Below, piece after piece: positions 9,120 through 64,000 of a DNA stretch of 64,000 bases; the first letter of the stretch is position 1; each line of letters opens with the position of its first letter. Below the pieces are notes generated by a model. The model was given only the letters and a program-made list of their open reading frames with translations. It made no database searches and had not been told where the DNA came from. The stretch is from NCBI GenBank assembly GCA_033813415.1, contig JAPXRV010000002.1:23432-87431 (forward strand), written 5' to 3'. The DNA is from Opitutales bacterium. GTDB taxonomy: Bacteria > Verrucomicrobiota > Verrucomicrobiia > Opitutales > JAFGAQ01. Position numbers and translations under genes: made by a program.

Positions 9120-10667
9120 TCAGTGTTTGAAGTGGCGGTAGCCGGTGAAGACCATCGCCATGCCACGCTCGTTGGCGGCTTGAATGACCTGGTCGTCACG
9201 AACAGACCCGCCGGTCTGGATGCAGGTGGTGGCTCCGGCATCCGCTGCTGCGATGAGCCCATCCGGGAAAGGAATCAGTGCATCGGAAATCATCGCCGAA
9301 CCCCCCAGGTCGAGACCTGCTTCTCCCGCCTTCCACACGGCGACTTTTGAGGAATCGACGCGGGACATTTGTCCGGCTCCAACCCCTAGGGTGCGGGTGC
9401 CTTTGGTGTAGACAATGGCGTTGGATTTGACGTGTTTGACCACCTTCCATCCGAAGAGCATGGAATCCCATTCTTCCTGGGTGGGCTGGCGTTCCGTGAC
9501 GACGCGGAACCCCTCCTTTCCGTATCGGCGGGTGTCGGCTTCCTGCACGAGGAAGCCACCGGCCACTGAGCGGATGTCGAGCAGGCTTGCGGGGTCCGGG
9601 ATTTGGCGGGCTTCGAGCAAGCGCAGGTCCTTCTTTTTGCCGAATCGATCGAGTGAGTAAGCGTCGAATCCCGGAGCGATGATGATCTCGCACCAGATTT
9701 GGCGGATGCGCTCACACAGCTCTTCATCGACGGTGCGGTTGACGACGATGATCCCACCGAAGGGGGCCTGTTTGTCGGTTTCGAAGGCGGCATCCCACGC
9801 TGCAGACAAGGACTCTGCACTGGCGACCCCGCAAGGGTTGGTGTGTTTTAAGATCGCAAGAGTGGGATCCTGGAACTCACCAATGAGGTTGGATGCTGCG
9901 GTAACGTCGAGGATATTGCAGAAGCTGAGTTGCTTGCCCTGAAGCTGATGGAATCGATCGTGGAAGTTTCCGTAGAGAGCGGCCTGCTGGTGCGGGTTTT
10001 CGCCGTAGCGCAGGATGTCAGCCCGTTTCCCGGAAATGGAGAAAACCTCAGGGAGTCCGGCGATTGCGCCGGGTGCGGGTTGCTCGGCAGTGGATGCGAA
10101 GTAGTCGGCGATGATCCGGTCGTAACGTGCGGTGTGGTCAAATACCTTGGCGGCAAATTCCCGGCGCAGGTAGCGCAGGTCGGCGCCGTTGCCGAGTGCC
10201 TCGACCAGCCGATCATAGTCCGCCGGATCCGTGATGACCGAAACATGGCGGTGGTTCTTGGCTGCGCCCCTGAGGAGTGAGGGGCCTCCGATGTCGATGT
10301 TTTCGATGGCTTCCTTGTCGGTGACGCCTGGTTTTGCGATGGTCTGCTCAAACGGGTAAAGATTGACGACGATAACGTCGATCAGGGCGATACCGGCTTT
10401 TGCGGCGGATTCCACGTGGGAGGCGATGTCCCGGTCGCAGAGGATGCCGCCATGAATCTTCGGATGAAGGGTTTTGAGGCGGCCATCCATCATTTCCGGA
10501 AAACCGGTGTGGGACTCAACAAGGGTGACAGGCACCCCTGATTCCTGAAGGAATCGGGCCGTTCCTCCTGTTGAGAGGATGGTGTATCCGAAGCGTTCCA
10601 CCAAAGCTTTGGCAAAGGGCAGAACGCCGGTTTTGTCACTGACGGAAATGATTGCGTATTTATCCAT
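9120..10667 (-). CDS. purH: bifunctional AICAR transformylase / IMP cyclohydrolase
   Basis: 515 aa. The N-terminus is MGS-like ([21 protein letters not shown]). The AICARFT body is present, and the conserved C-terminus reads [14 protein letters not shown]. Confidence 0.95.
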
Positions 10668-10834
10668 GAATCTAACTCCAAAAACCGATCCCTAATCTAA
10701 ACTGGAAAGCTTGGCAAAGAAAGAAAAGCGGATCAAAAAAAATGAAATCGTGTGGGGTGTGTGGTGAGAGTGTTTGCGGAAGTGTGGTTCGGAGTTGCAC
10801 TTTGCCTGCAAGTGTCTTCATCTGGGGAAACGTT

Positions 10835-12031
10835 ATGAACAAGTGTTCCGAGCAATTGGAAGAGCTGATCCGGAAGGTTCAGCCCGAAGTAGTGAGCCTG
10901 CGTCATCGCATTCACGAAGAGCCGGAGCTCTGCTATCAGGAAAAGGAGACCGCGGGAAAGGTGGTCGGGTTTCTGAAGAATGTGCCTGGTGTTGACATCC
11001 GGACGGGTGTGGCCGGCACGGGTGTTGTGGCTGTGCTTGGGCGGGGCAAGCCCGGGCGTTGTGTGGCATTGCGGGCCGACATGGATGCGCTTCCGATCGA
11101 GGAAAAGACCGGCTGTGCTTATGCCTCGAAAAAGCCCGGGTTGATGCATGCATGTGGTCACGATGGCCATACCGCGATTCTGGCGGGGACGGTGAAAGTG
11201 CTGAGTGGTCTGCAAGATAGTCTTAAAGGCCCCGTGAAGTTCATTTTTCAACCGGCTGAGGAAGGCGGCGGAGGCGGCCGCCGGATGGTGGAGGAGGGAG
11301 TCTTGAACGATCCGGATGTGCATGCGATTTATGCCTTGCACGGTTGGCCGGATGTCGAGATTGGAAATGTGGGTTATGGGTATGGCGGAATCATGGCCAG
11401 CACGGATTCATTCACCATTCGGGTGAAAGGGCACGGAGGGCATGCTGCGATTCCGCAGAAGGTGGTGGACCCGGTTGTGATTGCCGCTCATTTGATCGTG
11501 GCATTGCAGACGGTTGTATCCCGCAACACCGATCCGGTGGAGAGTTCGGTGCTCTCGATCTGTAAGCTTGAAGGTGGTTCGGCTTTCAACGTGATTCCGA
11601 ATGAAGTGTCGATGCTGGGAACGCTGCGCACACTCAACGAGACGGTGCGTCAACGGTGTCTGTCGCGGATGCACACGATCATTCAGCATGTTGCGGAAGC
11701 GTTTGGTGGTTCTGCGGAGTTGATTTACCGCGAGGAGTGTTATCCGGTCTGCCACAACACCGATGCTGAGGTTGATTTCTTCAAGGAGGTGATGTCGCAG
11801 TGGATTGGTGTTGATCAGATGGTGAAGATGCCGCCCAGCATGGGAGGCGAGGATTTTGCCTTCTACACCCACCATGTGCCTGCTATGTTTTGGATGCTGG
11901 GTGTGAAAGGCCGGGGCGCGGACAAGTGGCCTCAGTTGCATCAGCCTGACTACAACTTCAATGATGACGCGATTCCGTACGGGATTCGTGGGCATTGCGA
12001 GATGGTGCTCGCCTTCCAGGATCGGCAATAG
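10835..12031 (+). CDS. M20 family amidohydrolase (N-acyl-amino-acid/hippurate hydrolase-like)
   Basis: Motifs MHACGHDGH and FQPAEEGGGG are present and the overall length is typical of the family. The track ORF starts at 10742. I prefer the ATG at 10835 (MNKCSEQLEELIRK) because the upstream extension is a Cys/Val-rich read-through of a GT-rich leader. Confidence 0.85.
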   Translation: MNKCSEQLEELIRKVQPEVVSLRHRIHEEPELCYQEKETAGKVVGFLKNVPGVDIRTGVAGTGVVAVLGRGKPGRCVALRADMDALPIEEKTGCAYASKKPGLMHACGHDGHTAILAGTVKVLSGLQDSLKGPVKFIFQPAEEGGGGGRRMVEEGVLNDPDVHAIYALHGWPDVEIGNVGYGYGGIMASTDSFTIRVKGHGGHAAIPQKVVDPVVIAAHLIVALQTVVSRNTDPVESSVLSICKLEGGSAFNVIPNEVSMLGTLRTLNETVRQRCLSRMHTIIQHVAEAFGGSAELIYREECYPVCHNTDAEVDFFKEVMSQWIGVDQMVKMPPSMGGEDFAFYTHHVPAMFWMLGVKGRGADKWPQLHQPDYNFNDDAIPYGIRGHCEMVLAFQDRQ

Positions 12032-51906: not shown

Positions 51907-53796
51907 TCACTTCCGCATTAACGTCTGGATTCGGGCGATTTGGCAGCTTCTCGCTAGTCGAAGCAGTAGGTTGAGTCCGGAATCATTTGGGTATCCGGAT
52001 GCAACGCTGGACAAGTATTCTGCCAGTGTGGCGACGTCTCCCTCTTCGGCGTAAGCGCGGATATTGGCTTGAATGTGATCCGGCAGCGAGTGGACATTTG
52101 TGTGGAGTGTGCTGGAGTTGTCTGTTTCGAACGCATCTGCGGGACTCCGATCCGCCACACAGGGAGTGGCACAGGGCCCCATGTTTGTAAGGATGAAGTC
52201 TGTAGGTGGCGCGTGTAGGATTTCGCCACAGGATCCGGAATCTGATGCAGCGCTTTGGCTTATGAGCTTTCCCGATTCGATGCGCGACGTGTCGAGGATG
52301 TTGTTGATCAGCTTTAGAAGGTGGTCACCGCACTGGTGGATGACTTCGATCTGTTTGGTCACTTCCGGCTGGATGGTTTGGTTTCGGCGAAGGATCTGGG
52401 TGAAACCAAGAATTCCGTTGAGCGGCGTGCGGAGTTCGTGGCTGACTGATGCCAGAAAAATGGATTTTGCGCGGTTGGCCGACTCGGCTTTGTCCTTTTG
52501 AATGAGCAGGGCTTCCGATGTGACCCGAAGCGAATGGGTTCGCTCGTCCACCAGTCTTTCAAGCTTATCCCGGTGGGTTTTAAGTTCTTCGGATTGCGCC
52601 TCGAGGAGATGGGTTTTTTTGGCGAGGTCACGCCGGTTCTCAACGGATTGAATGGTCTGTTTGTATCCTATCAGCATGAGGAATGACATCATCCCAAGAT
52701 AGAAGGAGCTGGTTGTGATCCGGGATAGTCCCAATAGAGTCAGGATCACAAAGCTGAGGTCCAGACAGGCAGTAGCTACCAGAATTGAAAACGCCCAGCG
52801 GATGTAGGCTTGGTCGGGTCTTTGTCTTTCCCGAAGGAATCTCCAGAGCGAGGGCGAAACCAATCCAAGCGTGACTGGCATCATTCCCCAAAAGATGCAG
52901 ACCAGTACCGATGATATCAGTTGAGGGCTGGCCAAAAGGACGGCGGCAATCCAGACGTGAAGGATAGCAAGCTTGTGAACCCGGTTGGGTCTCCTCATTC
53001 CAAGCAGATTTTCGATGTATAGGAGAAACGCCACAGGAAGCAGAAACATGGAGCCATTGGTGAGATACCAGATGAGCCATGGATTCGGATTCCGGATGCT
53101 GAGAACTTCCGAATCGAGCATGTTGAGTCCGGTGAGCAGCGATAGGGTTCCAATGTGGATGAATGTGCGCCGGTTTTCCTCATCATGGACCGCTACCACA
53201 ATCAGGCAGTATACTCCCGAGAGGATCATGAGCATGCGGATGATTGCGATCGGCAGTTCCTGTTTTAACGCCTGAATGCTCCATTGGTTAACGGATCCGA
53301 AATGTGGAAACTCGGTGAAACCGCTTGATTCATACGGCTTGGAGGTGAACTCGATCAGGATCTGTTTGCCGGGTGCCCCATCCGGGAGCGGGATTGAGTG
53401 GGAGCTGGAGGATAGATACTGACGTGCAAACCAGGATTTGTCTTCGCCGTAGCTGTAGATGAGACCGTCCTCTACGAAGACACTGAACGGTCCGTGGGCA
53501 GAGTTTGTGAGGAGGACAATCCCTGCATCGTGAGGTAGTGTTTCGGGTAAGGTATTGCGGAAACAGAGGCGGCCTTCGTGACTGGAGAATCGAAGTTTGG
53601 GTTGCTTGGTTTCGATCCAGATGGACCCGGAATGTTGATCATCCAGTTGGAACGCCCAAGGGGTTCCTAATGGACGCAGGCCATATGGTCCCTCGCCGTT
53701 TTTCGCTTCATTCCAGAATCTTCCCCGGACACCTGTCACAACACATAGCAACAGCACAATGCTGATGATGGTCCATATGTGTTTCTTGGGATGCAT
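51907..53796 (-). CDS. 7TM-receptor (7TMR-DISM-like) HisKA protein lacking a recognisable HATPase_c domain
   Basis: I prefer the ATG at 53796 (MHPKKHIWTIISIVLLLCVV). It has an extracytoplasmic region, seven hydrophobic helices, a coiled coil and the H-box FLASVSHELRTPLNGILGF. It ends ~120 aa after the HisKA domain with no N/G1/F/G2 boxes. Confidence 0.7.
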   Translation of the reverse strand: MHPKKHIWTIISIVLLLCVVTGVRGRFWNEAKNGEGPYGLRPLGTPWAFQLDDQHSGSIWIETKQPKLRFSSHEGRLCFRNTLPETLPHDAGIVLLTNSAHGPFSVFVEDGLIYSYGEDKSWFARQYLSSSSHSIPLPDGAPGKQILIEFTSKPYESSGFTEFPHFGSVNQWSIQALKQELPIAIIRMLMILSGVYCLIVVAVHDEENRRTFIHIGTLSLLTGLNMLDSEVLSIRNPNPWLIWYLTNGSMFLLPVAFLLYIENLLGMRRPNRVHKLAILHVWIAAVLLASPQLISSVLVCIFWGMMPVTLGLVSPSLWRFLRERQRPDQAYIRWAFSILVATACLDLSFVILTLLGLSRITTSSFYLGMMSFLMLIGYKQTIQSVENRRDLAKKTHLLEAQSEELKTHRDKLERLVDERTHSLRVTSEALLIQKDKAESANRAKSIFLASVSHELRTPLNGILGFTQILRRNQTIQPEVTKQIEVIHQCGDHLLKLINNILDTSRIESGKLISQSAASDSGSCGEILHAPPTDFILTNMGPCATPCVADRSPADAFETDNSSTLHTNVHSLPDHIQANIRAYAEEGDVATLAEYLSSVASGYPNDSGLNLLLRLARSCQIARIQTLMRK

Positions 53797-54125
53797 GAAC
53801 GGCCCGTTTTTGAATGGGTATGAATCCGTGGTGTGGCATATCCCGTGCCATAGTGGTGGAAAATGTGTCCAATATGAACAAAACGCAGTGTGCATCGGGA
53901 TTGATGTCTGGACAGACAATCCCGATGCACCACAGGGGCGGCACGAGGGATCGTGGGCAATCGATCCTATATCGCTCCATTGGAACGAGAAGTCGTGGGC
54001 GTACGCCCACAAACCAACGGCTTCGTGCGGGCCGTGTGGTTTGCCTTATACCCTATGGGCGATCAACTGTTGGGTGGCGTTTCGACGGATACCTATCGGG
54101 CATGTCCTGTATAAAACTGCGCCAA

Positions 54126-56192: not shown

Positions 56193-57800
56193 ATGACAGA
56201 GACAACGGGAGCAAATCTGGGTTTTGAGGACAAGCTGTGGAACGCGGCGGACAAGATGCGGGGCACGATGGATGCGGCCGAGTATAAACATGTCGTCCTT
56301 GGACTGATCTTCCTAAAATACATCTCGGATGCTTTTCAGGAGCGCTACGACCAGTTGAAGGCAGAGGCTTTTGCCGACCCCGAAGATCGCGACGAATACA
56401 TGGCCCTCAATGTCTTCTGGGTTCCGCCTGAGGCCCGTTGGCTCTATCTCCAGAGCCGCGCTAAAGACCCGAAGATTGGCCAGCTCCTGGACGAGGGAAT
56501 GACCGCCATCGAGCGTGACAACCCTCCGCTAAAGGGTGTGCTTCCCAAAGACTACGCCCGGCCTTCTCTCGACAAAGCGCGGCTTGGGCAACTCATCGAT
56601 TTAATCGCTACGATTGGCTTGGGAGACGAGCAGAGCCGTCAGCGTGACGTCCTCGGGCGCGTTTACGAGTACTTTCTTGCCAGGTTTGCCGAAAAGGAAG
56701 GCAAACTTGGCGGTGAGTTCTATACTCCGCAGTGCGTGGTCCAGCTGCTCGTGGAGATGCTGGAGCCCTACAAGGGCCGCGTCTTTGACCCCTGCTGTGG
56801 CTCGGGTGGCATGTTTGTGCAAGCGGTGCGCTTCGTGAAGGCCCACGCCACCGGCAATGGCAACGGCGCAGCCGCCCTGAGGCAGATTTCCATCTATGGG
56901 CAAGAGTCGAACTATACAACTTGGCGGCTGGCCATCATGAATCTGGCCATTCGGGGCATTGATGCTGATATCCGTTGGGGCGACTCTTTCCTTCAGAATA
57001 AGCATCCCGACCTTCGGGCCGACTACATCATCGCCAACCCGCCTTTCAATATGGAGGATTGGGGTTTTTCCAAGGTGAAGGATGACGTGCGCTGGGCTTA
57101 CGGCACTCCTCCCGGAGGCGGGCAACGGAAGCAGAAGGATGGCTCCGTTGTTTCGGTGGACGGCGGCAACGCCAACTACGCCTGGATTCAGCATTTCATT
57201 CACCATCTGGCTTCAGACGGCCTTGCGGGCTTTGTTCTTGCCAACGGCTCCATGTCCACCCAGACGGGCGGAGAGGGAGAGATCCGCAAAGCCCTGATCG
57301 AAGCTGACATGGTGGACTGCATGATCGCGCTGCCCGGCCAGCTCTTCTACACCACGCAGATTCCCGTCTGCCTGTGGTTCCTCACGCGATCGAAGCGTCC
57401 GGACAACAAGCGGGGCTTCCGGGGGCGCGTTGGAGAGACCCTTTTTATCGATGCCCGCAAGCTTGGCACCCTTATAGATCGCACTCACCGTGAGCTGTCT
57501 GCTGCTGAAATCGTGGAAGTCGCCCGTACCTACCATGCCTGGCGCGGCGAAGCTAAGGATGGTGCTTACGAGGATAAGCCCGGCTTCTGCCAGTCGGCGA
57601 CCCTCGAGGATATCCGCAAGCACCATCATGTGCTGACACCTGGCCGGTATGTGGGCTCCGAAGCGATCGAAGACGATGGCATTCCCTTTGAGGAAAAGAT
57701 GGCCGAACTCGCCGACCGCCTGCAGCAGCAGATGCGGGAATCCATCGAACTCGATGCCACCATCCGCAAGAATCTGGAGGTTTTGGGCTATGGAGAGTGA
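56193..57800 (+). CDS. hsdM: Type I restriction-modification system, DNA methyltransferase subunit
   Basis: 535 aa with an HsdM_N-like N-terminus. Motifs: [17 protein letters not shown] motif [11 protein letters not shown], and catalytic IANPPFNM (NPPF at 57036-57047). Confidence 0.9.
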
Positions 57801-59079
57801 GTGGACAAAGAGCACTTGGGGTGACGAGGTTTCCTTGGAATACGGCAAGGGCATTCGCGGGTATCAAACTGCCAAGGGTCGGTATCGCGTGTTTGGCGCT
57901 AACGGTCCAGTCGGTTGGACAAGCAAACCACTTGTGCAGGGTTCAGGGGTGATTTTAGGTAGGAAGGGAGCATATCGAGGGGTTGAGTATTCGAAGGAAC
58001 CGTTCTTCGTCATCGATACAGCGTATTACGTGCAGCCCAAGAAGCCTCTCGATATGAGGTGGCTTTATTACGCCATAAAGTACTATAGGCTTGGGGAAAT
58101 AGACGATGGCTCGCCAATTCCATCTACGACAAGGGCTGCTGTCTATGTTCGCGATTTGAGCGTTCCCCCGCTTCCCGAGCAGAAGGCTATTGCGCACGTG
58201 CTCGGGTCGTTGGATGACAAGATAGAAGCGAACCGGCAGATGAACTCCACGCTGGAGGCGATGGCGCAGGCGCTCTTCAAGAGCTGGTTCGTGGACTTCG
58301 ACCCCGTGATCGACAACGCCCTCGCCGCAGGCAACCCCATTCCCGACGAACTCCAGGCCCGCGCCGCAGCCCGTGAATCCCTCGGCGACGCCCGCAAACC
58401 CCTCCCCGAACACCTCCAGAACCTCTTCCCCGCCTCCTTCACCCAAACCGAAGAACTCGGCTGGATTCCGGAGGGGTGGGCGGTAGGCCGCATTCGTGAC
58501 TGTTGTGAAAAGATTCAGAATGGCGGAACCCCAAAACGAAACATCAAGGATTATTGGCAGCCGCTCCAAGTGCCCTGGTTGACTTCCGGCGAGGTAAGAC
58601 GCGGTTTCATTACCAGAACTGAAACTTTCATTTCTGAGCTTGGACTGCAAAAAAGTGCGGCAAAATGGGTTCCTGAAGATGCGACCGTAGTCGCCCTTTA
58701 CGGAGCGACTGCCGGTCAGGTTGCTTTCTGCGCCTCAAGGCTTACTACTAACCAAGCAGTATGTGCCTTGATCAGCAAAGAGAACTATCGCTTCTTTAGT
58801 TACATTTTTCTGTCTCGATCTATTGGTTCCTTAGCCAATCAGGCAAGAGGTTCAGCTCAGCAGAACATAAGTAAGGGCATTGTTGAGGAACTCCCAGTGA
58901 TCCTCCCAAATACATCTGTCGTTCAAACCTTTGACAAACTACTTGAACCAGTCTTCGCCAAGTGGAAGCTGAACGAATCGTATAGCTCCGACCTCGCCAA
59001 GACCCGTGACACACTGCTGCCCAAACTCCTCTCCGGCGAACTCCGCCTGCCAATCGAAGAATTGGAGGTGGCGGTATGA
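57790..59079 (+). CDS. hsdS: Type I restriction-modification system, specificity subunit
   Basis: The ATG at 57790 ([14 protein letters not shown]) overlaps the hsdM stop by 11 nt. Two variable TRD-like halves are separated by conserved helices: [46 protein letters not shown] and the C-terminal [16 protein letters not shown]. Confidence 0.85.
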
Positions 59080-61001
59080 GCAGGGAAACGACGCTGTCCA
59101 GCTTGGCCATGCTGAAGGTGCGTGTGGACCAAGGGGGCGATTATCTGGAGTATCTCAGGCCTTTCATCCTCCATGTCCTGCCGAAGCTTCAGAATGGCGT
59201 CGTCACGGATGAAAGCGTCTCATTGGCCCTGCTCAACGAGTTCGGGCTCTCGATACCTCGCAGAACAACCCAGATCGTTCTCAAGCGGCTAACGAAGAAG
59301 GCCGGGCCTCTCCGCAAGGACAACAACACTTACGTCCTGGAAAAAGACATCTCGTCGGGCGATCTTGCCACTCGCCGGGCTGACGCATCCCGGCGCATCT
59401 CAGCAGTCGCCCATGCTCTGATTCGATTTGCAAAGGAGTTCCACGACAAAGACCTATCGGAAGACAGCGCTTTTGAGGCCCTGACTCTCTTCCTTTCAAG
59501 GTTTTCCGTCAGCTGCATTCGCTCCTACCTTCGCGGAACAGCTCTGCCCAACAATCTCACCGCGAAGGATGGAGATCTTCTGTTGGTCTGCCAATTTGTG
59601 AAACAGATCCAGTCGATATGTCCCGAACGTTTCGAGGATTTCATCCTTCTCGTTCAAGGGCACATGCTCGCCAATGCTCTGCTCTGTCCTGACCTCAAGT
59701 CTGTTTCCAAGACCTATGCAGGTGTTTCGTTTTTCCTCGATACGCCTCTGCTACTTCAGGTTTTGGGGCTTGAAGGCGAAACGAAGGAACAATCTGTAAA
59801 GGAGTTGATTCGATTGCTTCAAAGCCTAAGTGGAACGGTTGGATATTTCATTCACACTTTCGATGAGTTGAGGAGTGTCATCCGGAAAACCTCAGATTAC
59901 ATCGACTCTACAGATGGACGCGGATCAATCGTTTACGAAGCCAGACGTTTAGGCAAATCCAGGTCAGACCTACTACTGGAGGCAGATAATGCCAAGGAAA
60001 GTCTGGATAGGCTGAAGCTCGTACCACATAACACCCCGCCTTACATTGCGAAATTCCAAATCGATGAAAGCGCGTTCGGGGATGAATTAGATGATTCAGT
60101 TTCGTACAACAATCCGAATGCTCGCCAGAATGATATAAACTCTGTGCGCAGTATCTACGTGCTTAGGCAAGGGACGATTCCACATTCCATCGAGTCTTCG
60201 AAGGCCATCTTTGTCACCAGCAACACCGGTTTCGCGAGAGCAGCTTTTGAATACGGAAGAAACTTCGAACAAACGCGGGAGGTCTCCGCTGTAATCTCTG
60301 ATTTCAGCTTGGCAAATACCGCTTGGCTAAAGGCTCCTCAGGGCGCACCGTCTCTTCCGAGAAAGGAGGTTCTGGCTTATTCATACGCAGCTCTTCGCCC
60401 CAGCGAGGAGTTTCTCAGGAAGACGCTTGTCGAAGCCGAAAAGCTCGAAAGGGAAGGCAAGATCTCTGAGCGATCCCACCAGATGCTCCGAAGCAATCAC
60501 ATCATCCAAGAAGATCTGCTGTCTCATACTCTTGGAGAGGAAGATGCGCTCACGGAGCGGTCAATCACTGCAGTTTTAGAAAAAGCTGAGGCGGAGATAA
60601 AAAAGGAGGAGTCGGCGAAACTCCGACAAGAGAAGGCGGCTCGCACACGAGCTGAAACAGATCTGCAGGAAGAAAGAACAAAAAGAGAGGAAATATCTCG
60701 TCGAATCTATTGGGATTGCGATACGCAAGCAAAGAGGTGGTCAGATATTGGGGCCGGAACATTGGTCTTTTTCGTCTTGGCGGGTGCCGTTTGCGGATTA
60801 CTCAAGCTTCCTGATAACCTGTTGGCGGGAGTGGTTATTCTTTCTGTCCCTCTGGTCTTTGCTGTTCTGACCGTTTGTAACCTCATCTGGGGAACCACAG
60901 TAAAGCAGTTGAGGGACAATGCCCAAGTGAATCTTAGGCAAAGATTTCTTAAGAGGGAGTCGCAGAGGCTGGGAATTGAATTTGAGAATCTTGCAGAATA
61001 A
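59076..61001 (+). CDS. unknown 641-aa protein: winged-helix-like N-terminus, PIN-like central region, coiled coil, C-terminal two-TM hairpin (defence-locus cargo)
   Basis: ATGA overlap with the hsdS stop (59076-59079). wHTH-like stretch: GLSIPRRTTQIVLKRLTKKAGPLRKDNNTYVL. PIN-like landmarks: FFLDTPLLLQVLG, HTFDELRSVI, QNDINSV, IFVTSNTGF. Hydrophobic helices at aa 558-578 and 582-606 (nt 60747-60893). I do not recognise the family. Confidence 0.7.
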   Translation: MSRETTLSSLAMLKVRVDQGGDYLEYLRPFILHVLPKLQNGVVTDESVSLALLNEFGLSIPRRTTQIVLKRLTKKAGPLRKDNNTYVLEKDISSGDLATRRADASRRISAVAHALIRFAKEFHDKDLSEDSAFEALTLFLSRFSVSCIRSYLRGTALPNNLTAKDGDLLLVCQFVKQIQSICPERFEDFILLVQGHMLANALLCPDLKSVSKTYAGVSFFLDTPLLLQVLGLEGETKEQSVKELIRLLQSLSGTVGYFIHTFDELRSVIRKTSDYIDSTDGRGSIVYEARRLGKSRSDLLLEADNAKESLDRLKLVPHNTPPYIAKFQIDESAFGDELDDSVSYNNPNARQNDINSVRSIYVLRQGTIPHSIESSKAIFVTSNTGFARAAFEYGRNFEQTREVSAVISDFSLANTAWLKAPQGAPSLPRKEVLAYSYAALRPSEEFLRKTLVEAEKLEREGKISERSHQMLRSNHIIQEDLLSHTLGEEDALTERSITAVLEKAEAEIKKEESAKLRQEKAARTRAETDLQEERTKREEISRRIYWDCDTQAKRWSDIGAGTLVFFVLAGAVCGLLKLPDNLLAGVVILSVPLVFAVLTVCNLIWGTTVKQLRDNAQVNLRQRFLKRESQRLGIEFENLAE

Positions 61002-61798
61002 TGAACCTCTCCTGCACTAAAACTGAGTATGAGGACAACCACGCCTGCGTGTCGTGGCGTGGTCACTCGTTCTCGGTAGGCAGTGAGTTCGACGGATTTC
61101 TGAAGGGAAGCGTTCGCTCGCGACTGGACGATGAGGAGGGTTCGGACGATTTCCGCAGCCATGTGAGAGGATTGGAACTGACTGGGATGGGGAAGACCAC
61201 ACTGGAGGCGGTGCTGGCAGCCGAAGCCCCCGAGGAACGGGATTGGGCCGCTGGCGAGGCTTTGGCCGAAGCATTCTTGATGGAGACCCATGGGATCGCC
61301 TTCCCCTGGAACATGGAGCGCGATAAGCGCAATCCGTTTGGATCCCTGCCGGGTGCTGATCTAGTAGGCTTCCTCTCCGAAGGCGATGGCTACCGGCTGG
61401 CGCTTGGCGAGGTCAAAACATCCTCCGAGGAAGCCTATCCGCCGCAGGTCATGTCGGGCAGGTCGGGACACATGGGTCATCAGATTGACACGCTCGGGAG
61501 TGACTTGACGACCCTATGCCAGCTTCTCAAATGGTTGCACCCGCGCACTAAAGGTGGGCAGTTTGAGGATGCGTTTGACAGGTCCTGTGTTGCATACTTC
61601 AATTCGGGCCGAAAGGCGATAGCGCTTTTTGGCGTGCTCATCCGTGACACGCAACCGAACGCTCGGGACCTCTCCGCCAGGGGATCAGCCTTGCGGAATC
61701 GGCTCGCTGCGCCGACGCAGTGCGACCTCATCGCCCTTTACCTTCCCTGGAAATCGGACCAACTAATCCCCGCGATCCGGCAAGGAGGTGACGCATGA
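61001..61798 (+). CDS. PD-(D/E)xK-type nuclease-like protein, HamA/DUF1837-like candidate
   Basis: 265 aa. The start shares base 61001 with the upstream stop (TAATG). The core reads PGAD120LVGFLSEGDGYRLALGE137VK139TSS, a D...ExK arrangement. It is ATGA-coupled to the downstream helicase. Confidence 0.6.
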   Translation: MNLSCTKTEYEDNHACVSWRGHSFSVGSEFDGFLKGSVRSRLDDEEGSDDFRSHVRGLELTGMGKTTLEAVLAAEAPEERDWAAGEALAEAFLMETHGIAFPWNMERDKRNPFGSLPGADLVGFLSEGDGYRLALGEVKTSSEEAYPPQVMSGRSGHMGHQIDTLGSDLTTLCQLLKWLHPRTKGGQFEDAFDRSCVAYFNSGRKAIALFGVLIRDTQPNARDLSARGSALRNRLAAPTQCDLIALYLPWKSDQLIPAIRQGGDA

Positions 61799-64000
61799 GC
61801 CACTGGTTGCTGGATGGAATCGCGGAGCGCCGCCGCGCGGCCTTGAAGGCTGCGGACAAGGCGCAGGTTTACCGTGAGCTGCTGTCTACCGAGGCGGAGA
61901 CAGACTATGATCTGATCCGGAATGTCGCCGACGCGTTGGAGCTGGCCTCGCTCGACCTCATCTTGGAACGCTTTGAAGAGGACGAGGAGAAAGAGAAGCT
62001 TTTCCGCGCCGCTGCGCGTGATGCTTTCCGCCTTTCCAAGAGTCTGCCAGCGGCGGATATCCCCCTCCAAGAAGGCATGGCGCTGCTGCGGGCATCCTGT
62101 CTGGCAGTGCTCGGGGATCGGGGCTCTGATGCCGCTCGTTGGCTTCGCGCCTTGGAAGACTCCGGGACCTGGCCAGAACTGCCCTTTGAATCGGAAAACT
62201 GGGGCGAGCGAACCTGGGCGACCATCATCGACGTGTGGCTTCGTTTGATTCGGAAACGGGGTTGGACTGACCGTGACCTGGTGCTGCAACGCATCGCGAG
62301 TTTGCGCGAAAGCCAGAGTGAATTCGAGAAGACCTACCTGGACGGCATCCCGGCCCAATCCGCAAAAGCGACGGCCCTTGAACTTATCGGGCTCTACCAT
62401 TTGGCCAAAGCGGCGGATATTCTTGCGCACTTCATCACGGATGGAGTCGTGGAAGGGAACCATCAGGTGCAGCAGCTCCTCGACACCCATTTCGACCGGG
62501 CATTGGCGGCTTGCGAACCAGCCCGCTTGATTGAGCTGGAGCCCATGACGCGTCTATTGGCGGCTGCCTCGGCGCAACTGGTCAACAATTCGATCTGGAC
62601 GGTGACCCGGGCGGTGAACTCACGAGTGACTCAGTTTGTGCGGACGCTCGTATCTCGTGGACGTGGGGACAAAGCGATCTTCGATGTTCTACCGCCGCAA
62701 CGCCGAACTCTCGCTGAAAAGGGACTCTTGGGCTCAAGCCGCCGTGCAGTGGTGGTCAGTTTGCCAACATCTAGCGGCAAGACGCTGATTGCGCAGTTCC
62801 GCATTTTGCAGGCACTGAATCAGTTTGATGACCCGGGCAGTGAAGGCTGGGTCGCTTACCTCGCTCCCACCCGGGCATTGGTCAATCAGGTGACGAGGCA
62901 ATTGCGCAGGGACTTTAAGCCATTGGGCATCGTGGTCGAGCGGGTGAGCCCCGCACTCGAAGTTGATGGCGTGGAAATGGAATTGCTGACAGAAACAGAA
63001 ACGGACTCCAAGTTTCGCGTTCTGGTGACCACTCCGGAGAAACTCGATCTCATGCTCCGGCAAGGATGGGAGAGCAAGATTGGCAGGCCGCTGACGCTGG
63101 TTATTGTCGACGAAGCCCATAATTTGGCCAGTTCGCGCCGAGGCCTGAAACTCGAACTACTCCTCGCCAACATCAACAAGGAGTGCGAATACGCGCAGTT
63201 TCTCCTGCTCACGCCTTTTGTTTCCAATGCGCGTGAAGTAGCCAGATGGCTTGGCGGACAGAATTCTGACGACATTAGCCTCGCCCTCGATTGGCAGCCC
63301 AATGACCGTACAATCGGAATCGTGCAAGCAGTTCAGGGTGACCCGCTGAATGGGCGCAGCTATGACTATTCTTTGGAGTTCGAAAGTGTCCACACGACCC
63401 GGAAGACCATTGCCCTCGATGATCGGGTTCCTTTCCCGAAGACCGAGGAAATAGCACCGACTTTTTCCAAGGCAAAGAATCAAGGCACAATAGCAGCGGT
63501 CGCGGCACAGTATCTGAAACAGCGTGGCCCCGTCATTCTCATGCACGCGAGGCCGGATTGGGTTTGGTCCTTGGCAGACCAGCTCAAGATCGTCTCGAAT
63601 CGGAAAATTGCTGTTCACGCAGACATTGCTTTTGTGCAGCGATATCTGGCGCTCGAATTGGGAGAAGCATTTCCCCTCATCGAGTTATTGTCGTTTGGCA
63701 TCGGAATCCATCATTCGGGATTGCCCGAGGAGGTTAGGGTTTTGGTCGAGTGGTTATTCGAGTCCTCGCACCTCGACTTTCTGGTTGCTACGACGACCAT
63801 CGCTCAAGGTATCAATTTTCCCGTCAGTGGTGTAGTGATGGCATCCCACCAGTATTTCAGCGCGAGGGGCGCAGAAGACATGCCACCGGAAGACTTCTGG
63901 AATATCGCGGGTAGAGCAGGGAGAATATCTCAGGGCCAACTCGGAATAGTCGCTTTGGCCGCCGACAGTCACGAAAAGGCCAGTGCTTTGCGGACCTACA
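61795..64000 (+). CDS. Ski2/Hel308-like DExH-box SF2 helicase with ~320-aa N-terminal extension (partial, runs off window end); HamB-like candidate
   Basis: Own translation: ATG at 61795, open for 735 codons to 64000. It is not in the track because no stop is reached. Motifs: PTSSGKT (62764-62784), TTPEK, VIVDEAH (DEAH 63109-63120), LLLTPF, IGIHHSGL, VATTTIAQGINFP, NIAGRAGR (63907-63924). Confidence 0.85.
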   Translation, partial: MSHWLLDGIAERRRAALKAADKAQVYRELLSTEAETDYDLIRNVADALELASLDLILERFEEDEEKEKLFRAAARDAFRLSKSLPAADIPLQEGMALLRASCLAVLGDRGSDAARWLRALEDSGTWPELPFESENWGERTWATIIDVWLRLIRKRGWTDRDLVLQRIASLRESQSEFEKTYLDGIPAQSAKATALELIGLYHLAKAADILAHFITDGVVEGNHQVQQLLDTHFDRALAACEPARLIELEPMTRLLAAASAQLVNNSIWTVTRAVNSRVTQFVRTLVSRGRGDKAIFDVLPPQRRTLAEKGLLGSSRRAVVVSLPTSSGKTLIAQFRILQALNQFDDPGSEGWVAYLAPTRALVNQVTRQLRRDFKPLGIVVERVSPALEVDGVEMELLTETETDSKFRVLVTTPEKLDLMLRQGWESKIGRPLTLVIVDEAHNLASSRRGLKLELLLANINKECEYAQFLLLTPFVSNAREVARWLGGQNSDDISLALDWQPNDRTIGIVQAVQGDPLNGRSYDYSLEFESVHTTRKTIALDDRVPFPKTEEIAPTFSKAKNQGTIAAVAAQYLKQRGPVILMHARPDWVWSLADQLKIVSNRKIAVHADIAFVQRYLALELGEAFPLIELLSFGIGIHHSGLPEEVRVLVEWLFESSHLDFLVATTTIAQGINFPVSGVVMASHQYFSARGAEDMPPEDFWNIAGRAGRISQGQLGIVALAADSHEKASALRTY

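Follow-up and report, generated by a model that had tools for sequence, protein, structure and literature searches.

What is a large protein of unrecognized family doing inside a Type I restriction operon? The question is raised by a 64,000-nucleotide (nt) stretch from an Opitutales bacterium (assembly GCA_033813415.1, contig JAPXRV010000002.1, positions 23,432 to 87,431), hereafter the window, to which all coordinates refer unless another locus is named. The gene concerned, ORF641, occupies 59076-61001 on the plus strand, as do all its segments described below; it encodes 641 amino acids (aa) followed by a TAA stop, and hsdS lies directly upstream. An earlier note, made from the DNA letters and their open reading frames (ORFs), had read the product as an orphan, membrane-tethered, DNA-binding and nuclease-like sensor or abortive-infection effector, with a central module of foreign origin. 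The ORF is genuine, and its reading as a tethered, DNA-binding-type, nuclease-like and probably defensive protein is supported by the predicted fold, the invariant PIN-type residues, the conserved transmembrane hairpin and the recurrent embedding of the gene in restriction systems; the orphan status and the foreign central module had to be abandoned. Our own answer is tentative, a close call that could well go the other way: ORF641 would represent a family of autonomous, single-polypeptide defence modules, each a predicted PIN-like nuclease tethered to the membrane.

A large family without a name

A protein search retrieved more than 1,090 close homologues of ORF641, none of them informatively named among the best 120, which are 618-673 aa long, share 46-100% identity with the query and cover 85-100% of it (mostly 97-100%). 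A profile search over 1.84 billion representatives of clusters at 50% identity returned 4,282 clusters at E ≤ 1e-3 and 1,923 at E ≤ 1e-30, nearly all of 620-690 aa, matched from end to end, with one fixed architecture and from many phyla. Scanning one genome per species placed the family in at least 91 species, belonging to taxa such as Chloroflexota, Acidobacteriota, Planctomycetota, Bdellovibrionales, Nitrospirota, Verrucomicrobiota, Pseudomonas, Methylovulum and Microbulbifer. Plasmids of Enterococcus faecium, Klebsiella quasipneumoniae, Pantoea, Sporosarcina, Arthrobacter and Hymenobacter carry more distant relatives, annotated as "hypothetical protein", with 22-33% identity and lengths of about 650-665 aa.

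The ORF641 sequence found nothing usable in Pfam, NCBIfam, PADLOC, PHROGs or the PDB. The Pfam scan of the protein gave zero matches at E ≤ 0.1, in a search where the flanking hsdM and hsdS matched strongly; neither the domains of Type I subunits (HSDR_N/ResIII, N6_Mtase, Methylase_S) nor, above threshold, those of SNIPE (DUF4041 and GIY-YIG) were matched. Profile searches of the PDB with full-length and domain alignments stayed at chance level (syntaxin and histone H4, for example), Foldseek against viral structures yielded only low-probability, tape-measure-like matches from the long helices, and three plasmid homologues had no relevant match in PADLOC-DB v2. As had been noted, the protein lacks a Walker A motif; a HEPN motif was likewise rejected, the five R-x4-6-H strings present all falling at non-conserved positions. 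The family is uncharacterized and unnamed in every library searched.

A predicted PIN-like domain with invariant residues

Most of the weight of our reading is borne by the middle of the protein. The alpha/beta domain at 59706-60350 (aa 211-425) has five parallel strands and large insertions, and spans aa 218-420 in the full-length AlphaFold2 model, which was built on a 41-sequence alignment and has a mean predicted local distance difference test score (pLDDT) of 75. Modelled alone (pLDDT 83, predicted template-modelling score 0.83), it shows five strands alternating with helices, and the three-layer alpha/beta/alpha fold with a five-stranded parallel sheet that defines the PIN superfamily is present in the model. 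Foldseek, run on both models, placed PIN proteins at the top probability, in agreement with the PIN-like call of the earlier note: PAE2754 (probability 0.96-0.98, template-modelling score 0.57-0.61 on the target), VapC 7vwo (0.87-0.99) and HARP 7og5 (0.60-0.92), with weaker matches to PAE0151 and FEN1.

The three to four conserved acidic residues expected of a PIN domain can also be recognized in the sequence. Every motif quoted earlier was found at its residues, and the candidate active-site residues are D222/T223, E264, D353/S356 and N383, with D298 and E331 likewise conserved. In 41 close homologues D222, T223, H260, E264, D298, D353, S356, R358 and N383 are invariant; once plasmid homologues of 19-24% identity are added, D222, E264, E331, D353, T381 and N383 remain so. 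In the VapC alignment of PF01850, lvDTsvw parallels FFLD222TPLL, and the spacing of N383-T-G-F386 (FVTSN383TGF) equals that of D118-R-D-F121 (LLHND118RDF). Sub-threshold Pfam matches within the family point the same way (PIN_3 at E 5.9e-4 in the E. faecium plasmid homologue, PIN at 0.05, PIN_12 at 0.11). An hhalign comparison with a 52-sequence VapC profile paired the third Asp of VapC with D298 and not with D353; this pairing is probably spurious, since the Foldseek alignments cover about 200 of the 241 domain residues and the N383-x-x-F386 spacing fits the mapping first proposed. The third acidic residue may be either D298 or D353. From its predicted fold and motifs, the domain is quite probably PIN-like.

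Membrane hairpin, stalk and N-terminal domains

Of the other parts read earlier, the winged helix and the two hydrophobic helices were recovered and the coiled coil was not. Behind the PIN-like domain, a helical region (60351-60554, aa 426-493; AlphaFold2 helices at aa 426-485) with the conserved strings RDHQLLRS and LTLGEE.ALTE leads into a long charged helix (60555-60746, aa 494-557), in which 50% of residues are D, E, K or R. A canonical coiled coil was rejected for this segment because a crude test found no heptad a/d enrichment (a/d hydrophobics 0.33 versus 0.28 elsewhere). It has about one hydrophobic residue per turn-and-a-half to two heptads and possibly resembles, by the same crude test, a charged single helix of the ER/K type, roughly 95 Å long. 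AlphaFold2 draws one uninterrupted helix over aa 494-573, the charged segment continuing into the first hydrophobic helix.

The two hydrophobic helices, TM1 (60747-60809, aa 558-578) and TM2 (60825-60893, aa 584-606; aa 582-605 in the model), were delimited by Kyte-Doolittle hydropathy and by the model; their 19-residue means reach 2.29 and 2.72, and a loop of five residues, PDNLL, joins them. A K/R-rich C-terminal helix (60894-60998, aa 607-641; last modelled helix aa 609-632) with the weak family motif L.RE...G(I/L)D closes the protein. Of 41 close homologues, 38 have two C-terminal hydrophobic segments, as do 113 of 133 cluster representatives of full length; every one of the 133 has at least one hydrophobic peak there. 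The sequence is rich in K/R on both sides of the hairpin, which, with the five-residue loop, agrees with a hairpin whose two ends are cytoplasmic. Conservation is high up to residue 493 and lowest in the stalk, hairpin and tail, with no invariant column in the transmembrane region; there, selection acts on hydrophobicity only. Some members have weak Pfam matches to S_4TM and DUF2207_C.

These matches, together with a hairpin that is universal in the family and with N383 in place of the usual Asp, could be taken to indicate an abortive-infection effector, whose hairpin would oligomerize and depolarize the membrane on activation while the PIN-like domain served as a non-catalytic sensor of nucleic acid. 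We regard this as quite unlikely: the three acidic residues, along with E331 and D298, show complete or almost complete invariance, as would be expected of a functional metal site, and the low conservation of hairpin, stalk and tail, the lowest in the protein, is more in keeping with an anchor than with a specific pore.

The N-terminal segment (59076-59156, aa 1-27) is highly conserved (SLAMLKV..D.G.DYL.YL.PF, 10 invariant columns) and contains a helix modelled with low confidence at aa 3-17. It precedes the winged helix-turn-helix (59157-59345, aa 28-90), supported by the topology of the model, in which three helices and a beta-hairpin occupy aa 28-88 (helices 28-37, 45-56 and 62-73, strands 79-82 and 85-88), and by Foldseek matches to the Z-alpha domain of African swine fever virus I73R (probability 0.97), Rok (0.72) and the Cdt1 winged helix (0.54); several family members match SelB-wing_2 or TrmB of Pfam weakly. 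The all-helical domain that follows (59364-59705, aa 97-210) holds 25 invariant columns, including CLR.YLRGT and GHMLANALLCPD, and has no recognizable relative.

Genomic context of the family

The gene surroundings were compared across 80 genome loci. In 24 of them hsdS lies immediately upstream on the same strand, and in about 28 the family gene stands between hsdS (or hsdM) and hsdR. The alignment to hsdR starts within 30 nt of the end of the gene in eight loci and within 80 nt in two more, giving a plain M-S-X-R operon in which X is the family gene. Of 27 embedded loci, counting the window, 16 show an overlap of 1 or 4 nt between the hsdS stop and the start of the gene, and 23 have the two within 20 nt. 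The HsdM protein is 55-85% identical to that of the window in 21 of the 24 embedded loci, whereas unrelated Type I methylases in the same loci reach about 27-33%, so one Type I lineage carries the gene across many phyla. The slot between the family gene and hsdR receives variable extra cargo, such as PDC-M23 in the window and SLFN/AlbA_2 proteins in another locus (L007). The closest homologue, at 71% identity, belongs to an operon (locus L005, 7025-20868) of the order hsdM-hsdS-X-C5 methylase-HATPase/HEF_HK-Response_reg_2-hsdR. This operon adjoins MobA/MobL and ParB-like genes, which suggests that it lies on a mobile element.

Embedding extends to two further methylase-based systems. One copy sits inside an Hma system (L054, 5950-15832: HmaA-127aa-X-169aa-HmaB) and another directly before HmaB (L060, 8172-14892); two more lie between a Type III-like methylase, matched by PADLOC PDLC03632 at E = 0, and a UvrD-like helicase (L024, 2041-8866; L044, 6831-13967), sharing the strand of these neighbours at gaps of 6-17 nt.

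Such an arrangement invites comparison with PrrC. The family gene uses the same hsdS-hsdR interval as prrC, in which it always comes first behind hsdS, usually in translational coupling with it; with the single HsdM lineage of most embedded loci and the copies in the two other systems, this would suit a guardian held latent by HsdM/HsdS or other methylase complexes, a suicide nuclease freed when a phage anti-restriction protein disables the complex. In about two thirds of the loci, however, Type I genes are absent within 10 kb, the embedded copies are intermingled with the solitary ones in a neighbour-joining tree, and the plasmid copies stand alone, unlike PrrC, which is almost exclusively embedded in Type I systems (10.1101/2024.01.29.577857). 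Neither the N-terminal ABC-ATPase with Walker A of PrrC/RloC nor another PrrC-like domain was found in ORF641, nor was there a Pfam or PADLOC match, and we consider a guardian of this kind unlikely. Translational coupling and co-transfer with one HsdM lineage across phyla could also mark a structural accessory subunit that tethers the Type I restriction complex to the membrane; this seems very improbable indeed, as most copies have no adjacent Type I genes and a tether would need no invariant catalytic-type pocket. A third possibility, rather improbable to our minds, is a dedicated companion of methylation-based restriction (Type I, Type III-like and Hma): a PIN-type nuclease, tethered to the membrane and synthesized together with the specificity or methylase subunits, that would guard the complexes against phage anti-restriction proteins or cut the nucleic acid of an invader at its site of entry. 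If true, it would define a new class of restriction "partner" using PIN chemistry.

Solitary copies have varied neighbours, among them DUF4411 and M78 pairs, TIR_2 proteins and transposases. A conserved partner gene was sought by all-against-all comparison of the neighbours in 46 solitary loci and rejected, none being found. The plasmid copies stand alone between insertion sequence (IS) elements and resolvases or beside CBASS-type genes, some of them near resistance genes. On the Sporosarcina plasmid pSporoP37 (L091, 6974-14793), a homologue of 27% identity lies about 1.2 kb upstream of a CBASS-type cluster encoding nucleotidyltransferase, ThiF-family, MPN/JAB and SAVED-domain proteins, with a recombinase gene in between. 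In three gammaproteobacteria, Methylovulum (L016), Porticoccaceae (L045) and Microbulbifer (L049), the solitary copy (10001-11900 of each locus) is directly downstream of ribonucleotide reductase genes, and in two of them NYN-domain genes occur within a few kb; the adjacency to ribonucleotide reductase may reflect an insertion hotspot or shared ancestry.

Plasmid copies beside IS elements, resolvases and resistance genes, and others among housekeeping genes, raise the question of whether the protein serves defence at all. It could be a membrane-tethered regulator, having a winged helix and one homologue labelled "predicted transcriptional regulator" by one source, or it could provide mobile elements with a maintenance or exclusion function and merely hitch-hike in variable regions; a tblastn search of 50,697 phage genomes gave no match to the family, which also speaks for this possibility. 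Yet strong, position-specific embedding in three kinds of restriction system is unexpected for a regulator, which would have no need for an invariant PIN-type pocket, and no conserved target gene accompanies the solitary copies. A function outside defence is therefore, in our estimate, unlikely. Since many copies are solitary, the gene would work alone, and the family behaves like an autonomous cassette of a single gene that methylase-based restriction systems have captured repeatedly.

Proposed function

Payne et al. found embedding to be a highly successful predictor of defence function and released 145 untested candidates as PADLOC PDC models (bioRxiv 10.1101/2024.01.29.577857); TgvAB is a tested system embedded in a Type I operon (PMC11411939). 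PDC-M23, next door to ORF641, is one of the PDC models, and the ORF641 family matches none. It is from this "guilt by embedding" that we infer a defence role, which makes the family a good candidate for a new single-gene anti-phage defence. We propose a nuclease with a recognition module because of the invariant residues in the PIN-type pocket, the retention of the anchor as a feature only, and the precedent of SNIPE, a GIY-YIG nuclease bound to the membrane, which cleaves phage DNA as it is injected and is both restrained and positioned by its membrane anchor (PMC13190303). In the tethered module that we favour, the hairpin would anchor the protein in the inner membrane with both ends cytoplasmic, and the charged helix of about 64 residues would act as a stalk keeping the N-terminal part off the membrane. 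The winged helix and the helical domain would recognize nucleic acid or protein of the invader and license the PIN-like site, the presumed effector, to cut nucleic acid. As the nearest structural neighbours, VapC, PAE2754 and HARP, are ribonucleases, RNA is slightly favoured over incoming DNA as the substrate. The tether may restrain the nuclease from host targets, position it where foreign nucleic acid enters, or both, and embedded copies, co-translated with hsdS, might form a second line of defence.

Several points weigh against this proposal. An obvious defence neighbour is missing from roughly half of the loci, and housekeeping genes, ribonucleotide reductase and polA among them, surround some copies; none of the 5,027 models of PADLOC-DB v2 matches ORF641 at E ≤ 0.1. 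The sequence-profile match to the PIN clan is not significant and no Pfam match rises above threshold: hhalign against the 52-sequence VapC profile (PF01850) gave a probability of 2.3%, profile-profile comparisons with one DUF4411 sequence and a 4-sequence VapC profile were non-significant too, and the Foldseek E-values of the PIN matches are weak (0.17-0.5). At the fourth catalytic position an invariant Asn, N383, stands in for Asp, which could leave the site weakened or non-catalytic. Catalysis, substrate, trigger, topology and the defence role are all features that we infer, and the cytoplasmic location of both hairpin ends is a prediction from hydropathy and charge only.

Base composition and origin of the gene

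The foreign origin of the central module had been argued from a dip in G+C content. The six hand counts behind it were exact; the dip itself proved to be a step near the 5' end, visible at third codon positions (GC3), with low values that reach the stop. ORF641 has a G+C content of 0.50 and a GC3 of 0.55, against GC3 values of 0.69 for hsdM, 0.68 for PDC-M23A and 0.65 for PDC-M23B. Within the gene, GC3 falls from 0.76 in codons 1-95 to 0.57 in codons 96-210 and 0.49-0.50 in the later segments up to the stop (Fisher p = 1e-5 for codons 1-95 versus the remainder), the low part running from about codon 180 to the stop, beyond the centre. The gene of the closest homologue has a low GC3 throughout (0.44), next to an hsdM at 0.66 in the same operon. 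Recent recombination was considered for the step and rejected: relative to this homologue, with 71% aa identity, synonymous sites are saturated (third-position identity 0.3-0.5), and any breakpoint would escape detection. The winged helix, PIN-like domain, helix and transmembrane hairpin form one unit in essentially every full-length homologue, and with the architecture fixed over thousands of clusters nothing suggests a separately acquired central domain.

Operon and neighbours in the window

The ATG of ORF641 is preceded by a strong ribosome-binding site, GGAGGTG at 59064-59070, and shares an ATGA overlap with the TGA stop of hsdS; its TAA stop and the ATG of the following gene have 1 nt in common. 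These overlaps indicate a tight operon, hsdM-hsdS-ORF641-PDC-M23A-PDC-M23B, all on the plus strand. The first gene, hsdM (56193-57800), encodes the Type I methyltransferase and is followed by hsdS (57790-59079) for the specificity subunit. A mechanical call begins the hsdS ORF at 57649, within hsdM; the start is more likely the ATG at 57790, given that the family match begins at residue 48 and that this ATG, with a GGAG site upstream of it, overlaps the hsdM stop. The composition of hsdS is patchy (G+C 0.62-0.64 at 58150-58600 versus 0.47 at 58600-59050).

Downstream, PDC-M23A (61001-61798, 265 aa, PADLOC match at E 6e-97, no Pfam domain) is a phage-defence candidate and PDC-M23B (61795-64000, PADLOC match at E 2e-301) a HamB-like DEAD/DEAH helicase; with overlapping stop and start codons, they constitute a second embedded candidate system in the same operon. 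PDC-M23B continues beyond the end of the window, within which hsdR is not reached. The pair accompanies the family in none of the 80 genome loci, only in the window and its near-identical metagenome contig. A promoter and terminator scan of 55.8-62 kb found no site above shuffle expectation, which is consistent with a single operon, and there is no tRNA near ORF641. Farther upstream, a 701-aa ORF on the minus strand (51907-54012) contains 7TMR-DISM_7TM and HisKA, with no HATPase_c reported by the Pfam scan; it may encode a truncated or divergent sensor kinase.

Comparison with known systems

If the defence role is true, a widespread gene has been missed by current catalogues, with thousands of clusters in many phyla and on Enterococcus and Klebsiella plasmids; it probably escaped notice because the family lives mostly in uncultured environmental bacteria. 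It would then also be a second example, built from unrelated domains, of a membrane-tethered nuclease that separates self from invader. The fixed position after hsdS offers a tractable case for asking whether embedded genes cooperate with their restriction hosts or merely share a promoter. The field already holds hundreds of untested candidates, among which the ORF641 family is a concrete, widespread and testable one.

By predicted fold, the best match of the domain is to the VapC/PAE2754 PIN ribonucleases (PF01850; PDB 1v8o, 1v8p, 7vwo). Shared with VapC are an Asp ending strand 1 (hhhDT), a Glu in the helix after strand 2, an Asp at a helix start and, after strand 4, hhhTxN..F with the spacing of the VapC hhhxND.DF. 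The ORF641 domain differs from VapC in its length of about 215 aa, with large insertions, versus about 135 aa, in its Asn at the fourth acidic position and in the lack of a significant sequence-profile match; no antitoxin gene goes with it, and the same polypeptide also contains a winged helix, a helical domain, a stalk and a membrane hairpin. PIN-TRAM proteins (PIN.COG4956, Matelska et al. 2017, PMC5499597) likewise join a PIN-type domain of uncharacterized function to transmembrane helices, but these are four and N-terminal, and a TRAM domain and a Pfam PIN match are present there, none of which is found in the ORF641 family.

SNIPE also combines a membrane anchor with DNA-binding-type and nuclease-type domains in one polypeptide, the anchor being poorly conserved and the enzymatic part conserved. 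Its domains are unrelated, GIY-YIG and DUF4041 instead of PIN-like and winged helix, and its anchor is an N-terminal single pass instead of a C-terminal hairpin; the resemblance is one of logic only. PrrC is likewise a nuclease-type protein encoded between hsdS and hsdR in the same operon. It is, however, a soluble ABC-ATPase fused to an anticodon nuclease and almost always embedded, whereas both domains are lacking from the ORF641 family, whose members are anchored in the membrane and in most loci stand alone. The embedded candidates of Payne et al. (HEC-03 with PIN, HEC-09 with NYN, and the PDC series; bioRxiv 10.1101/2024.01.29.577857) and TgvAB (PMC11411939) share the signature of embedding in Type I, Hma and related systems, and several of the former carry PIN or NYN nuclease domains; the architecture of ORF641, a winged helix combined with a membrane hairpin, is distinct from theirs and has no PADLOC match at E ≤ 0.1. 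The ORF641 family is a new architecture among nuclease-type defence candidates, not a new kind of system.

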